Assembly (NCBI GenBank): GCA_037130265.1
Contig: JBAXTI010000001.1
Span: 171,086 to 235,085, forward strand
Direction of reading: 5' to 3'
DNA from: a bacterium
GTDB taxonomy: Bacteria > Patescibacteriota > Minisyncoccia > Phycocordibacterales > JBBTRF01
DNA: 64,000 nucleotides
The notes below the pieces were generated by a model. That model made no database searches and had not been told where the DNA came from. It saw only the letters and a program-made list of their open reading frames with translations. Position numbers and translations under genes: made by a program. Position 1 is the stretch's first letter. The number at the start of each line of letters is the position of its first letter. This document shows positions 414 through 64,000 of the stretch, piece after piece.

Positions 414-497
414 GAAATGAAATTTCCTTTATCGGAAATTAGTGATTTCTTTACTGTTTCTTAGCAGTTTCTTGATCGGTGCTTTGGTATGGTTGAT
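414..497 (+). promoter_or_regulatory. Conserved upstream module, copy 1
   Basis: Palindrome AAATTTCC-6-GGAAATT. Three phased repeats TTTCTTTA, TTTCTTAG, TTTCTTGA at 446, 457 and 468 (period 11). TGgTATGGT extended -10-like at 485-493, ending 6 nt before ATG 500. Paralogous copies at 27447 and 63668. Confidence 0.5.
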
Positions 498-499
498 GT

Positions 500-1024
500 A
501 TGACCCCGTCAGATCATAGTAATCTCGATTATTCAACGATTTCGTTCGAAAAATTAACCGACTCAGAGATTAAAAGATTAGTTGTCTCTGGGGCGGTAAC
601 TCTGTTTGAAGTAGTCGGGCGCTACCTTATGGCTGAAACTGTCGAGGAGGGTGCGCGCATCGTTTCGGAGCTAGAAGGTAGGATATTCTATAGTAAATCA
701 ATTAAGAGTTATTTCGTTGTTGACGAAATAACTCTTGCCCATCTTTTCGGGAAGGTCAGGATAGATAAGGACTATCTTAGGCGCGCTCGTCTATTGGCGA
801 GTGGAATCGAAATCGCAGAAGACTCCACGAATCTTGTTGTGATAGATGCGAAAACTGATGCTGACAAGGCTATTGTGTATTACGAAATCTTGGGAAGTGA
901 CTTGGTGCGGTTTCCGGAAAAAATAATTCGAGTAAAGATTTCTGAAATGAAGCCATTTGGCAAAAAACTCTGGACAGTTGTTGATATTTCTATCTTAAAA
1001 AACAAAATCCCACCACAGGGGTGA
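500..1024 (+). CDS. hypothetical protein (174 aa), lower GC than neighbours
   Basis: Long ORF immediately downstream of the conserved regulatory module. No recognisable motifs. Confidence 0.5.
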   Translation: MTPSDHSNLDYSTISFEKLTDSEIKRLVVSGAVTLFEVVGRYLMAETVEEGARIVSELEGRIFYSKSIKSYFVVDEITLAHLFGKVRIDKDYLRRARLLASGIEIAEDSTNLVVIDAKTDADKAIVYYEILGSDLVRFPEKIIRVKISEMKPFGKKLWTVVDISILKNKIPPQG

Positions 1025-1240
1025 GATGTTGTTTAAGGTTGGAGGGGCGCCAATCCCTCATCGCTCTAAGGCAGCAGTGGGGCGTCTTTCTGACTTTCAA
1101 CCTTACATCTAAGGAGGGCGGCGGGTCCTCATCCATCACCTCGTGAGAGGGTGTGCCAGCGAGCCTTTCTGGCGTCAAAGATTACCTAAAAAGTATAGCA
1201 AAGCGTGTCACGACGGTCAACTTCATGTTAAGCTTTCTAC

Positions 1241-3927: not shown

Positions 3928-4914
3928 ATGATTAACCCTCAGGAACAAGAGAAAGGGGCCCTGGAAGCAGCTCCGCTATCGGAACTCGAAGCGTTTCGAC
4001 GCAGTCGGCACGAACAGTGGAATACGCCCGCTGAGACTATCGAGTCTTTGGTGTTGAGGGCGACTGGCTCAGCATTGAACACGCAACGTAGGATTATTGG
4101 GGGTGAGACGAATGAGGTATATGAGGCGGTGACCGATTCTGGGCAGGAGGTTATTGTCCGTATTTCTCATGGCAAGAGAAATCGGTTTGAGAAAGAGCAG
4201 TGGGCGCTACAGCAGTGTGCGAAAGTGGGTGTGCCTGCGCCAGAAATGCTTTTGGTGGATAGTCTCAGTGTTGGTGGCAAGAATGTGTATGTTTGCGTTG
4301 AAACAAAGCTCCCTGGAGTGGGTTTGGATACAGTCCCCGTTAGTGAGAGGACTGGCATACTTCGTGAGCTCGGTGAACTGTTGGGTCGACTGCATTCGAT
4401 AAAGACTGAAGGGTTTGGTATTTTGGATAGTGAGGGACGAGGAAAATTTACGTCTGTACCGGAGTTGGTTATTGGTGACCATCAGGTTCATTTTCGAAAG
4501 ATCATCAACGCACTTGAGGGAAGAACGGAAGATATTTCGTGTCTTCAGGAAGCCTCAGCGATTTTAGAGAAAGAAGCGCAATCCCACGTGAAGGACGCGC
4601 CGTGCTTGGTGCACAATGACCTTTGTCCGCAACACGTTTTGGTCCATAATGGAAAGATTTCGGGAATCATCGACTTTGAGAGTGCACAAGGTGCCGATGC
4701 CTCAGTTGATTTTGGACGTTGGGAGATACGATATGGAAAGGACTACCCTTTGAACAGTATTGAAGAGGGATACGACCAAAGAAATGCGCACTTCTGGAAG
4801 ATGTATCGCACGTTTGGTAGTCTGCGATACTGCGTGGAACACAAAAAAGAGACAGGAATTACTGCGGCGATACAGGCAATACGAGAGTCGGCAGAGTTTT
4901 TGGCAAGGAAATAA
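3928..4914 (+). CDS. phosphotransferase (APH/choline-kinase-like) family protein
   Basis: LVHNDLCPQHVLV (HxDxxxxN catalytic loop) and IIDFESA (DFG-like DxE). Confidence 0.6.
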   Translation: MINPQEQEKGALEAAPLSELEAFRRSRHEQWNTPAETIESLVLRATGSALNTQRRIIGGETNEVYEAVTDSGQEVIVRISHGKRNRFEKEQWALQQCAKVGVPAPEMLLVDSLSVGGKNVYVCVETKLPGVGLDTVPVSERTGILRELGELLGRLHSIKTEGFGILDSEGRGKFTSVPELVIGDHQVHFRKIINALEGRTEDISCLQEASAILEKEAQSHVKDAPCLVHNDLCPQHVLVHNGKISGIIDFESAQGADASVDFGRWEIRYGKDYPLNSIEEGYDQRNAHFWKMYRTFGSLRYCVEHKKETGITAAIQAIRESAEFLARK

Positions 4915-13009: not shown

Positions 13010-14215
13010 CTACTTCGTATCCTCCAGTGCCAAGCTCCATCGCAGGCCGTAGAACATGAGAATGCCGAGTACGAGGAAGATGTAGCCGAAATCGAATCCA
13101 AAATGGGTGAGTGCGGCAAGAGTTGCGGTCGCAAGTAAAGGGCCGATAACATACGACCACGGACGCATGGTGCGGTAGAGGCTCATGAAATTGACACTTG
13201 ATCCATCGATTTTTTTGAAGAAATACGTTTCGCTGCCGATCTCCACCATCGCCGCCCCGATACGAGTGACGAACAAAATGCCAGTCCAGATCCAAAACTC
13301 TTTTTTCTCGATGAACGCAATCAGGCTTGTTGAGATCGCCATGATGATGAAGCCGATGCTGATGATCTCTTTCTCGCCCCAACGGGTATCGGCGAGTTTG
13401 CCGAGCGGTTCTTCGATGAGAACAAAGGGTATGAGCATGAGACTGAACATCACGCCGATTTCGGACCACGAAAAGCCAATGTGTTGGTGTAAGTAGAGGG
13501 GGGTGTAAATGACCATCCACGAGAAGAAAAGTTGCATGATGAAATTCACCATAAAACTGCCAAAGATGTTCTCGTCCTGCCAGACCTCGCGCACGGCCTC
13601 CTTCAAAGAGATTTCTTTGTACTGTGGGTCGCGGAAATGCCTCAAGTTGGTATTCAAAATGACCATCACTGGCAGGATCAAAAATGCCGCTGCGACGAAT
13701 ATCTGCCAATACTGACTATCGCTCAAAATGAAACCAGTCACGAGTGGCGCCACGATCCAGGCCGTATTGGCACTGGTGAGAAAAATGCCGCGCACTTTGC
13801 CGATGATGTTCTCAGACGAGTAATTCTCTAGGAAAGCGTCAATGGTGAAGTTGGTGATGGCGTTGGCGGTGAAGCTGGCGACGAAGGCGAGCAGGATCAA
13901 CCAAGTCGATTGAGCGTAAGCCATAGTCAAAAAACCGCCGAGTTGCAAGGTGAGCATGATTACCGTGGTGTGATAGTTGCCGAGCTTCTCGATGACTCGC
14001 GGGATGATAGCGAATACTGCAATGGTGGCAATCGCCGCCAGTGCGTATAGGAGTCCGACTTTTTGTTCACCAACGAACTTGCTCAGGAAGGTTGAGAAAA
14101 TGTATGCTGGCAGCACCGCTTGAAAGGTGAAAAGAAAACCAAGAATATACAATACGAATCGATGATGTGATCTGTCTTTCGCCGCATTTTCCATCGACCC
14201 ATTATATAACAACAA
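13010..14215 (-). CDS. MFS transporter
   Basis: About 12 predicted TM helices with MFS-like periodicity. Confidence 0.6.
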   Translation of the reverse strand: MLLYNGSMENAAKDRSHHRFVLYILGFLFTFQAVLPAYIFSTFLSKFVGEQKVGLLYALAAIATIAVFAIIPRVIEKLGNYHTTVIMLTLQLGGFLTMAYAQSTWLILLAFVASFTANAITNFTIDAFLENYSSENIIGKVRGIFLTSANTAWIVAPLVTGFILSDSQYWQIFVAAAFLILPVMVILNTNLRHFRDPQYKEISLKEAVREVWQDENIFGSFMVNFIMQLFFSWMVIYTPLYLHQHIGFSWSEIGVMFSLMLIPFVLIEEPLGKLADTRWGEKEIISIGFIIMAISTSLIAFIEKKEFWIWTGILFVTRIGAAMVEIGSETYFFKKIDGSSVNFMSLYRTMRPWSYVIGPLLATATLAALTHFGFDFGYIFLVLGILMFYGLRWSLALEDTK

Positions 14216-27423: not shown

Positions 27424-27446
27424 GGTTCTTGGTGTAGCGGCGGAAA

Positions 27447-27522
27447 TAAAATTTTCTTTATCGGAAATTAGTGAAAAATTGAACCTTTCTTAGCAGTTTC
27501 TCTATCGGTGTTTTTGTATGCT
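27447..27522 (+). promoter_or_regulatory. Conserved upstream module, copy 2
   Basis: AATTTTC-6-GGAAATT palindrome. Phased TTTCTTAG (27486) and TTTCTCTA (27497). -10-like TATGCT. Confidence 0.5.
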
Positions 27523-27551
27523 GTGTGTATTACTCAATAAGTACACATTAT

Positions 27552-28766
27552 ATGAATACACACGCATCCACCACAGTATTTTTCCGCGGTTTTTCAGTCG
27601 CAGTTGTCACTCTCGGTCTCATCTTTGGTCTCGTTGGTCCGCAGACGGCGCAAACGGCCCAGGCGATGGGTGGTTTGGAGGATTTTGTCGCCAAGCCGGA
27701 TATTAAATCATACGGCTCAGTGAGCGCCGCTCCCAAGGGTCTCACTCCCGATCAGGTGAAGCGTATTTATCATCTCTTTGAACGAGTTCCGTTGGTTTCG
27801 GCCTCCAGCACGGCGGGCGCCCTCTTAGCGAATGCCGCGTCCACGACCAAAAAGACCCTCGCCATCATCACGGCATACGACAATCCCACCATTGAGCAGG
27901 ATCTCGCTGTTTTCAGTGGACAGTTCTCACTACCAGCTTGTACTACAAATAACGCATGTTTCGAGAAACATTTGATGGATCCAAAAGGAAAGCCGAATAC
28001 CTCCTGGGCTCTCGAGAGTGCACTCGATGTCGAGTGGTCTCACGCGATTGCGCCGAAAGCAAAAATCCTCCTCGTTGTTGCCAAGTCGGCGAAAGGGAAG
28101 GATTTGCTTGAGGCGGTAGACTACGCGCGCAACCGAAAAGATGTTCAGGCGGTCTCTATGAGCTGGGGTGGTAAAGAATTCCCCGATCAAATTCATTTGG
28201 AAGATCACTTCACCTCGAAGTACGGTGCAACGTTCTTTGCCTCCTCGGGCGATAGCGGTAACGGAGTGAGTTGGCCTGCTGCATCGCCGAATATTGTCTC
28301 AGTCGGCGGTACAACACTCAATCTAAAGAAGGACGGTAGCATGCTCTCAGAAAAAGCCTGGTCGGGGAGTGGGGGAGGTGTGAGCAAGTATTCCATTCAG
28401 CCGAATTTTCAAGCAGATTATGTGATCCCGAAAGCCAACGGCAAGCGTGCCGTGCCAGACGTAGCTTTCGCGGCCGATCCAAAGACGGGTTTCTCGGTAT
28501 TTTCCACTTCCGCCGGTCCGAAAAAGAGTGGTTGGCACGTGCTCGGCGGAACGAGTGCCGGTGCACCGGCTTGGGCGGCGATTAAATTGATTGGCAGCAA
28601 TGTCTCGCACGAGTTTTTCTACAAAGCAAAAGCCTCTGAAAAGAACGCGGACTACTTTAGAGACATTGTGAGTGGAAAAAATGGCGACTGTACCTTTTAT
28701 TGTTCCGCTCGCAAGCATTACGACTTTGTCACGGGGCTCGGCTCGCCGCTCGCAACGCACTTTTGA
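27552..28766 (+). CDS. S53 (sedolisin)-family serine peptidase, secreted
   Basis: SGDSG and GGTSAGAP (serine nucleophile GTSxxxP) motifs. Signal peptide ending AQA. Start at ATG 27552 (GTG 27525 also possible). Confidence 0.55.
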   Translation: MNTHASTTVFFRGFSVAVVTLGLIFGLVGPQTAQTAQAMGGLEDFVAKPDIKSYGSVSAAPKGLTPDQVKRIYHLFERVPLVSASSTAGALLANAASTTKKTLAIITAYDNPTIEQDLAVFSGQFSLPACTTNNACFEKHLMDPKGKPNTSWALESALDVEWSHAIAPKAKILLVVAKSAKGKDLLEAVDYARNRKDVQAVSMSWGGKEFPDQIHLEDHFTSKYGATFFASSGDSGNGVSWPAASPNIVSVGGTTLNLKKDGSMLSEKAWSGSGGGVSKYSIQPNFQADYVIPKANGKRAVPDVAFAADPKTGFSVFSTSAGPKKSGWHVLGGTSAGAPAWAAIKLIGSNVSHEFFYKAKASEKNADYFRDIVSGKNGDCTFYCSARKHYDFVTGLGSPLATHF

Positions 28767-51265: not shown

Positions 51266-51356
51266 TGGCGGAAAGGGAGGGATTCGAACCCTCGTAGAGC
51301 TTTCGCCCTCAGCCGATTTCGAGTCGGAGCCGTTGTGACCGCTTCGGTACCTTTCC
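51266..51356 (-). tRNA. tRNA-Ser (anticodon CGA), long variable arm, CCA encoded
   Basis: Reverse complement: GGAAAGG/CCTTTCC, anticodon loop CTCGAAA, variable arm AGGGC-GAAA-GCTCT, T-arm GAGGG-TTCGAAT-CCCTC. Confidence 0.6.
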
Positions 51357-52349
51357 TTTGTTCTTGTCGGCGAAAAATCGATTGTACCGCTTCGCTATTT
51401 TCTCGTTCGATGACCCAATCTCTCGGAAATACTTTTTTATATCGGGCTCTCTTCTAAGAAACACTGCATATTTAGTTGTCTGCGTTGGATGCAAACCCAA
51501 CCTCTCGAGTGTCTTTTTGAAGAAGTAAACTAGTGGTAGCGATCGGTTCGTAAAATTGAGCGCACAATAAGAATATAGAGTATTTTTGCGCAAATGTCTA
51601 TCTACGTAAAAGCAGCCATCCGTGTCTAGTAAGCCGCGGACACACGCTTTGCTAAATCCAATATTTTGTTCGATCCACTTAGGGACCGCCACCTGCTCTT
51701 TGACCTTATTTCCTGGATACAAACCCATCTTCCCAAGTAGTTTTACAAAGGCGACGCGTGAGATGCGTATCAATATTACTCGCCTGTTATTTTGAGGAGT
51801 CGCCGTCGGCCTCTCGCCGAAAATCTCTTCAAAAAGATCGCATACATATACTGAATATGCCGCATCGTCCTCTTTGTGAAGGGTGATGCTCACCTGTCTC
51901 TCTGTGATACCTCCATCTCCTAGTATGATACCAATCAATTCAGCAAGCTTTTTTGTGTGTTTTGGCTTCTTTATCTTTCTCGCGATAAACGGACCAGTGA
52001 GGACTTTTTTCATGCTCTTTATTGCACGAAGCCCTCCAAGCCTCCTTCCTTCAACTGTTCCAGGGTTTCCGTGTAAACGTATTCGCGCCTTACCTCCAAG
52101 GAGAGCCGCTTTGATCTTTTGTTCTTTTTCGTCAATTTTCTCAGCGCGCCGAGGTGCTTCAACTCCGTATTTTCCGTACACATGATCCAGAAATTTCTCA
52201 GGAATGGACACTTTTCCTCGTCTCCAGTCAAAAAGGTTCCTTCTGGTTACGCCATACTCGTTACTAATTTCTGGCCAGGCCAATCCAGATCTTTCCTGGA
52301 TGTTCCTAAAGAATTCTTCCAAATTTTCTTTGTGAAACCTGAAGCGCAT
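51309..52349 (-). CDS. LAGLIDADG-family homing endonuclease (double-motif) with N-terminal HTH region
   Basis: Two LAGLIDADG-like motifs: LIGIILGDGGIT and VRGLLDTDGCFYV. Last 16 codons overlap the 5' half of tRNA-Ser(CGA). Confidence 0.6.
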   Translation of the reverse strand: MRFRFHKENLEEFFRNIQERSGLAWPEISNEYGVTRRNLFDWRRGKVSIPEKFLDHVYGKYGVEAPRRAEKIDEKEQKIKAALLGGKARIRLHGNPGTVEGRRLGGLRAIKSMKKVLTGPFIARKIKKPKHTKKLAELIGIILGDGGITERQVSITLHKEDDAAYSVYVCDLFEEIFGERPTATPQNNRRVILIRISRVAFVKLLGKMGLYPGNKVKEQVAVPKWIEQNIGFSKACVRGLLDTDGCFYVDRHLRKNTLYSYCALNFTNRSLPLVYFFKKTLERLGLHPTQTTKYAVFLRREPDIKKYFREIGSSNEKIAKRYNRFFADKNKGKVPKRSQRLRLEIG

Positions 52350-63641: not shown

Positions 63642-63667
63642 ACTTCGATGTCGGAGCCAGCAATCTA

Positions 63668-63748
63668 AAGTTTTCCTTATTCTTTCTTAGGTAAAACTTT
63701 AGCCTTTCTTGGCAGTTTCTCTATCGATGCTTTGCTACACTTTTTCCA
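63668..63748 (+). promoter_or_regulatory. Conserved upstream module, copy 3
   Basis: AAAGTTTT...AAAACTTT inverted repeat. TTTCTTAG (63683), TTTCTTGG (63705), TTTCTCTA (63716) on an 11-bp lattice. -10-like TACACT 9 nt before ATG 63751. Confidence 0.45.
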
Positions 63749-63750
63749 CT

Positions 63751-63834
63751 ATGGAAAAAGCCAAGAAAACACGGTTTGTATCCGGAAAGATCCGAGATGT
63801 CACTCCACGAGAAGAGAGAAGTTTACGAATAGTT
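63751..63834 (+). CDS. very small ORF (27 aa) downstream of module copy 3
   Basis: ATG ... TAG read by hand (MEKAKKTRFVSGKIRDVTPREERSLRIV). No other support. Confidence 0.15.
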
Positions 63835-64000
63835 AGTTTAGTCCTATCGATAAAGATCCAGGTGGGTGTTGTTGCTGCCGTTCCCGCTTTTCTCTCACCT
63901 GATAGACGGAAAAGAGATCTTGTTTTTAGTAAAATGATTGCGGATAAGATCAGGAGAGACCACGGAGAGTTTCTCCTGGAAAATTTTGTCATAAATGCAA

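Follow-up and report, generated by a model that had tools for sequence, protein, structure and literature searches.

Three genes in the window, by which we mean the whole stretch of 64,000 nucleotides analysed here, derived from an uncultivated groundwater member of the Patescibacteria, are each preceded by an ungapped copy, about 80 nt in length, of a single conserved module in which a phased array of 11-bp repeats is joined to an extended −10 promoter element. With slightly better than even confidence, we read this module as a series of operator sites on which a regulator would bind in tandem, the likeliest candidate being an activator of the PhoB kind that would take the place of the −35 element. 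Comparison of the copies with one another and with their counterparts in related genomes establishes the architecture of the module, its conservation and the position of its predicted transcription start, and it is from these features that we infer that a protein binds, in which direction it regulates and what kind of regulator it is. The module probably marks a small set of co-regulated genes. The three copies in the window are as follows.

416–496, + strand: module copy 1, between the pyrG stop codon (401) and the gene for a 174-aa protein; supported by nhmmer (416–494, E=1e-19), by the core match and by alignment
27445–27523, + strand: module copy 2, between the stop codon of an ABC-transporter gene (27423) and a peptidase gene; nhmmer E=1e-20
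63664–63742, + strand: module copy 3, between the pth stop codon (63641) and the gene for a 204-aa protein; nhmmer E=1.5e-18

A preliminary description of this DNA had reported three shared upstream regions of about 80 nt and a nearly exact match between the first two over 25 nt, and both observations are borne out. A pattern scan of the window locates the core 26-mer CTTTCTTRGCAGTTTCTYKATCGRTG at positions 456, 27485 and 63704, always on the + strand, with a single mismatch in copy 1 (G replacing the first C); no such matches are expected by chance, as judged from 100 shuffles. The distal 26-nt stretch AAATTTYCTTTATCGGAAATTAGTGA is present exactly at 420 and at 27449, again with a chance expectation of none. 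A gap-free alignment of the three copies spans approximately 88 columns, and pairwise comparison over 95 nt yields 74, 63 and 57 matches. The similarity is far above chance. Within each copy there is also a 12-nt direct repeat, TTTCTTTATCGG / TTTCTCTATCGG, whose members are 44 bp apart. In each copy, almost all of the six reading frames are interrupted by stop codons, and the module is therefore non-coding rather than internal to a mis-called gene, an objection that the preliminary description had itself raised.

27453–27508, + strand: internal direct repeat of copy 2, with TTTCTTTATCGG at 27453 and TTTCTCTATCGG at 27497

The genes located downstream of the three copies are not paralogous, and no common functional theme is evident among them.

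500–1024, + strand: gene for the 174-aa protein, its ATG lying at the predicted transcription start of copy 1
27552–28766, + strand: peptidase gene, whose product carries an N-terminal hydrophobic signal-like segment and matches Pfam Peptidase_S8, its close homologues being named S53
63751–64000, + strand: first 83 codons of the gene for the 204-aa protein, cut by the window end

The open reading frame at 63751 had been described as tiny, which is wrong, as it is the beginning of a 204-aa gene that runs off the end of the window. The public gene call after copy 3 begins 24 nt earlier, at 63727 (212 aa), using an ATG inside the conserved module; the start that is conserved among orthologues is 63751, not 63727. 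The 204-aa protein has 44 homologues and a confident structure model (pLDDT 85), with no match to a known family and no match of the model to a solved structure. For the 174-aa protein there was no family match and the structure model was poor. The window belongs to a metagenomic contig of 368 kb (ENA ERZ4222710 NODE_1), and close homologues of its proteins have been deposited as 'Patescibacteria group bacterium'. The domain represented by the 174-aa protein recurs inside giant proteins (1260, 1291, 1604, 1998 and 3318 aa), for which no informative Pfam match was obtained, the one hit being to DnaJ. On the minus strand at 1034–1183, convergent to the 174-aa gene, the Rfam model of the 'skipping-rope' sRNA (RF02924) matches twice in tandem below threshold, scoring 30.4 and 30.3 bits where the gathering score is 36.7 (E about 7e-5), and this pair has its own promoter, TTGACC-17-TG-TATACT (1220..1192), and a terminator-like hairpin (1027..1007).

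The preliminary description had proposed that related genomes be searched for the motif and that the downstream genes be catalogued. A metagenome scan revealed true copies in contigs from Hainich groundwater, and homologues of the downstream proteins led to syntenic loci. Together with the three copies in the window, these two approaches bring the number of distinct full copies to 11, each of them before a gene start. The copies in relatives are the following.

L024 and L035: orthologous to copy 1
L030a: orthologous to copy 2
L023 and L053: orthologous to copy 3
L025: before a ChlI/ComM-like gene
L021: before a PemK/MazF-like toxin gene
L030b: before an uncalled DUF4258 gene, which is followed by a DUF2283 gene

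These contexts show that a regulon composed of a secreted protease plus unknown proteins, as first envisaged, fits the window but is too narrow, since the relatives add ComM-like, PemK/MazF-like and DUF4258 toxin genes. Among species-representative genomes the core pattern gave 14 matches, all of them single chance ones without flanking similarity to the module, and no relative turned up in that set; an nhmmer profile detected no weaker copies in approximately 130 kb.

Inverted repeats were noted in the distal parts of copies 1 and 3.

421–440, + strand: distal palindrome of copy 1, AATTTCC-N6-GGAAATT, lost in the orthologous copies L024 and L035
63665–63702, + strand: distal inverted repeat of copy 3, CTAAAGTTTTCCTTA / TAGGTAAAACTTTAG, a variant common only to copy 3 and L023

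The palindrome had been taken as a sign of a second, dimeric regulator. It is weak evidence for one because it is not conserved: its left arm is gone in L024 and L035, and other sequence occupies the place in L030a and in copy 3 and L023.

The repeat array consists of up to six 11-bp units with the pooled consensus nTTTCTYnRnn, situated at about −90 to −19. The TTTCT elements start at 446, 457 and 468 in copy 1, at 27486 and 27497 in copy 2, and at 63683, 63705 and 63716 in copy 3, and all of them fall in one 11-bp register; the coordinates previously given for the TTTCTT repeats are correct throughout. Slot analysis resolves the proximal units of copy 1 as follows.

445–477, + strand: three proximal 11-bp units of copy 1, ATTTCTTTACT / GTTTCTTAGCA / GTTTCTTGATC

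When positions are expressed in anchor coordinates, in which the G of GCAGTTTCT is 0, TTTC(T/C) upstream of the −10 element lies at +4, −7, −18, −29, −40 or −51 in 37 of 38 cases across the 11 full copies from at least five genomes, although these copies are related by descent and the events counted are not independent. Every unit keeps one fixed register relative to the −10 element. The units come in two alternating flavours, TTTCTTAGCA and TTTCTCTATCG, with TTTCT(C/T)TATCG in slots −41, −19 and +3 and (TTTC)TTAGCA in slots −30 and −8; this alternation produces a 22-bp super-period and accounts for the 12-nt repeat with its 44-bp separation. As a control, we considered other sites in approximately 250 kb of the clade where TGnTAnnnT is followed by a start. 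None of the 25 TTTC(T/C) elements at these sites is on the module register, compared with 23 of 24 in the modules. In the slot-wise consensus, certain positions other than T are also near-invariant (AGCAG and TATCGnTG), which favours base-specific recognition over mere bending or an UP-like role.

Ten bp past the last unit is an extended −10 element of the form TGnTAnnnT. The TG is present in nine of ten aligned copies, and A2 and T6 of the hexamer are present in all.

485–493, + strand: extended −10 of copy 1, TGgTATGGT, with hexamer TATGGT at 488–493, 6 nt before the ATG at 500
27517–27522, + strand: −10 hexamer of copy 2, TATGCT, 29 nt before the ATG at 27552; predicted start A27529, giving a 23-nt leader that starts ATTAC
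63733–63741, + strand: extended −10 of copy 3, TGcTACACT, with hexamer TACACT at 63736–63741, 9 nt before the ATG at 63751; predicted start A63748

The predicted transcription start is an invariant A located 7 nt after the −10 hexamer (slot 36). In copy 1, L024, L035, L025 and L021 this residue is the A of the ATG itself, the −10 hexamer being exactly 6 nt upstream. The ATG lies 3 nt beyond the invariant A in copy 3, L023 and L053, and a short leader beginning with ATTAC is found in copy 2, L030a and L030b, that of copy 2 being conserved in L030a.

The −10-like hexamer without a canonical −35 that had been noted at the end of each copy was located in all three, and a sigma-70 scan detected no −35/−10 pair at any of them. 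A canonical sigma-70 promoter was rejected accordingly: the TG and the −10 are present, but there is no TTGACA-like −35 at 16–18 bp. What lies upstream of the −10, at 21 bp, is TTAGCA or TTGGCA, and in anchor coordinates the last base of the proximal unit is +13 and the first base of the −10 is +24, which places the repeats in the position of a −35. Sigma-54 was also rejected, as TGGCAG occurs only in copy 3 (TAGCAG in copies 1 and 2) and there is no TTGC 5 nt downstream. Likenesses to sigma-28 and ECF promoters, to the CodY box and to the DnaA box were assessed by eye and set aside, because spacing or key bases did not fit or because the match was not kept between copies.

Inspection of the regions upstream of all called genes indicates that the usual promoter of this genome is an extended −10 (TGnTAnnAT) 6–9 nt before the ATG, as exemplified by the gene starts at 3928, 22840, 36454, 45707(−), 38779(−) and 6709(−), and leaderless mRNAs appear to be the norm. 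Several ordinary promoters have TTGACn at 17 bp and −10 hexamers closer to TAnAAT, in comparison with which the module hexamers TATGGT, TATGCT and TACACT are sub-optimal. Near-leaderless transcripts, which had been put forward as a property of the module, are predicted for all three copies but are no hallmark of it, as they belong to the general promoter style of the genome. Since extended −10 leaderless promoters are the norm here, it is the array alone that is the special part of the module. Canonical sigma-70 extended −10 promoters share with the module the TGnTAnnnT element and a start 7 nt downstream, a core also found at other genes in this genome, whereas the module differs from them in its additional approximately 70 bp of conserved phased repeats and in having no −35 at 17 bp. 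This leaderless extended −10 style helps to correct the annotation of start codons in such genomes, the gene after copy 3 being one example.

The register relative to the −10 is preserved even where the module has diverged. A looser scan for TTTCT-N6-TTTCT identified two diverged, register-preserving modules in L057 (at 8390 and 7142), with one added unit, in which the distances of TTTCT and TATC elements from the −10 equal 20 or 14 with multiples of 11 added. In L056, TATC is kept at 14 and 25 nt from the −10. In these distant relatives, units have been gained or lost exclusively by steps of 11 bp counted from the −10, and such helical-turn-sized changes are what protein contact along one face of the helix would predict. 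The module is absent from more distant homologues of the S53 peptidase (58–59% identity), which indicates that it is restricted to one lineage.

Between copy 1 and L035, identity is 84% across the module and 90% in its proximal half, compared with 66% at the 3′ end of pyrG and 47% for the downstream gene, the encoded proteins likewise being 47% identical. Judged by these values, the module is under purifying selection and has diverged less than the genes on either side (84% versus 47–66% identity). Copy 2 and L030a have different upstream neighbours, as do copy 3 and L023, yet in both pairs the module remains attached to its downstream gene; in L021, the 5′ edge of the module directly adjoins a canonical GC-rich terminator. 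This linkage and the position of the terminator tie the module to the start of the transcription unit.

A further reading is that the module, transcribed from upstream, acts in the RNA, where it could terminate the upstream gene or, being U-rich, could serve as a leader or enhance the translation of genes that lack a Shine–Dalgarno sequence. At copies 1 and 2 no strong terminator separates the module from the gene before it, and local hairpins can be folded in copies 1 and 3. However, these hairpins vary from copy to copy and have disappeared in orthologues, the copies do not agree in their fold z-scores, RNAalifold finds 0 conserved pairs, and Rfam searches with either gathering or E-value thresholds gave no match. 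Furthermore, the module follows the downstream gene where the upstream gene changes, and strict 11-nt phasing together with a fixed distance to the −10 are properties of double-stranded DNA. Action at the RNA level is thus very unlikely, and we retain the original view of the module as an upstream cis-regulatory promoter element; it is non-coding and has no conserved RNA fold.

The two halves of the module have different histories. The proximal half tracks orthology (86–92%). The distal half (window positions 414–445 versus 27443–27474) is mosaic, in that copies 1 and 2 agree at 94% over 31 nt, whereas the identity of each with its own orthologues is only 52–74%, a pattern suggestive of gene conversion among the modules of one genome.

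Concerted evolution of this kind, and the unrelated nature of the downstream genes, would also be compatible with a self-sufficient promoter cassette that has no dedicated regulator, in which the phased T-rich units serve as an UP-like or curved upstream element that reinforces an extended −10 promoter, and which has been copied from gene to gene by recombination, a case of promoter reuse. Putative mobile promoters have been defined as sequences that are shared, at 80% identity or more over 50 nt or more, by the upstream regions of non-paralogous genes in the same genome and in its relatives (Matus-Garcia, Nijveen and van Passel 2012; PMC3575422). Both features are found here, copies 1 and 2 being 81% identical over 80 nt and the downstream genes being non-paralogous; in addition, the gene content near L030b and L030a is unlike that of the window. 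On the other hand, the near-invariant G/C positions in AGCAG and TATCGnTG are needless for bending or for UP function, TTTC is too short for a classical A-tract, and a proximal half that follows orthology implies copies that are old and maintained rather than recently spread. The module departs from putative mobile promoters in that its internal anatomy (repeat array, extended −10 and start site) is resolved, its old copies are under selection at orthologous loci, and a mobilisation mechanism is not evident. Terminal repeats and target duplications are absent, and collections of viral, phage and plasmid sequences gave only chance core matches or nothing, on which grounds a mobile-element origin was rejected. 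We consider a regulator-free cassette to be possible but rather unlikely.

By the same evidence, it is extremely unlikely that the module is a MITE- or REP-like miniature mobile repeat that merely happens to sit in intergenic DNA. Several similar copies per genome and mosaic distal halves are what such a repeat might display, but it would not be expected to lack both terminal inverted repeats and target-site duplications, to be oriented in every copy in the sense of the next gene at a fixed distance, or to occupy orthologous positions across genomes. The preliminary description had cautioned that the module might prove to be a mobile repeat present at non-promoter sites; no copies were found inside genes or at such sites in approximately 250 kb.

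Under the operator-array reading that we favour, each copy would constitute the complete promoter of the gene that follows. RNA polymerase would use the TGn-extended −10 (TAnnnT) and would start at the invariant A 7 nt downstream, and the array would serve as the operator, along one DNA face of which a sequence-specific protein would bind head-to-tail. The bound protein would contact polymerase at the −35 position and in this way aid the sub-optimal extended −10, a form of class-II activation as at pho boxes. A small and functionally mixed set of genes might thereby be placed under one signal, made up here of the genes for a likely secreted peptidase and two further proteins, to which the relatives add ComM-like and toxin genes.

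Because a −35 is not indispensable to an extended −10 promoter, there need not be an activator, and the array could just as well bind a repressor or a protein of dual function. The extended −10 would then be intrinsically active, and a protein polymerising on the repeats would silence the genes until a signal is received. The TGn found in nine of ten aligned copies renders a −35 dispensable, the targets include PemK and DUF4258 toxin genes, which are commonly kept repressed, and the presence of several adjacent sites favours cooperative occupancy. Nevertheless, the repeats are located upstream of the −10 and cover neither it nor the start, where repressors usually bind, and sub-optimal −10 hexamers are typical of activator-dependent promoters. 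We therefore think repression by such an array unlikely.

A precedent for such tandem repeats is the PHO box. The pho promoters of E. coli have a −10 and no −35. The PHO box is composed of two 11-nt direct-repeat units that are bound head-to-tail, and these units have a conserved core and less conserved bases, are arranged in 22-bp pairs and occur in variable numbers (PMC4415409). Like the PHO-box promoters activated by PhoB/PhoP, response regulators of the OmpR/PhoB family, the module has tandem 11-nt units in the place of the −35, the direct repeats TTTCTY-N5-TTTCTY being spaced, centre to centre, within the 10–11 bp expected of a pho-box-like promoter. It differs in its TTTCTY unit, which is unlike any described PHO box, in having up to six units of two alternating flavours, in its fusion to a leaderless start, and in targets that have no link to phosphate. 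The PhoB/OmpR-like logic suggested in the preliminary description is thus consistent with the geometry (hexamer-N5-hexamer, and 10 bp between the end of the last unit and the −10), but the regulator itself was not encountered: 84 kb of the genome (the window and its flanks) contain no gene for a Response_reg, Trans_reg_C, LytTR or winged-helix regulator, the only DNA-binding-type domains there being Bro-N and ORF6N/Rha. Accordingly, the repeats and their position agree with the OmpR/PhoB class, membership of which cannot be claimed.

Direct repeats of the LytTR type (ComE/AgrA/BlpR; 21–22 bp) and of the SARP type (11/22 bp) are likewise situated just upstream of promoters without a good −35, and they control small accessory regulons. 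To our knowledge, these systems have been described in Firmicutes and Actinobacteria and not in the Candidate Phyla Radiation (CPR). The repeat sequences of the module are unrelated to theirs, and a regulator gene of either kind was not seen in the 84 kb.

A more adventurous proposal, which we put forward tentatively and regard as rather improbable, is that the module serves a master regulator peculiar to this lineage of Patescibacteria as its operator. The regulator would not be a classical two-component response regulator; it could be a small orphan DNA-binding protein that polymerises head-to-tail on up to six 11-bp units, and it would switch on leaderless accessory genes for dealings with the host or environment (secreted protease, ComM-like DNA-processing protein and toxins). 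Were this true, no cis-regulon and no class of activator-dependent promoters would have been defined in the CPR before this one.

Full-text literature searches yielded no paper that deals with promoters or transcription start sites of Patescibacteria/CPR, and a sharply defined 80-bp module offers a concrete handle on regulation in these organisms. It is usable as such because it is conserved beyond the genes that it precedes and because its repeat grammar can be read directly. The module could be employed as bait for the regulator, as a model for regulon searches in MAGs and as a marker of leaderless starts in groundwater metatranscriptomes.

Several other elements were observed in or near the window. 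An array of TTTCT elements at 200–265 of L001, which lies on the same contig as the window, is out of register with the module and was not counted as a member. It precedes a tRNA-Met(CAU)-like gene (301–610, approximately 9.2 kb upstream of the window start) that carries a group I intron in its anticodon loop (Rfam RF00028, 60.1 bits versus 50), the in silico removal of which restores a 72-nt tRNA (ARAGORN). This gene is followed by an open reading frame with an HNH motif (700–1065, by eye) and by a second tRNA-Met (1104–1178). Within the window, a 346-aa open reading frame with LAGLIDADG endonuclease domains (51309–52349, − strand) terminates within the 5′ portion of a tRNA-Ser gene (51266–51356, − strand). 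Downstream of the window on its contig, at 14094–17846 of L003, is a gyrA-like gene (1250 aa) in which an intein-splicing domain lies between two DNA_topoisoIV hits, and the same arrangement is present in the relative L053.
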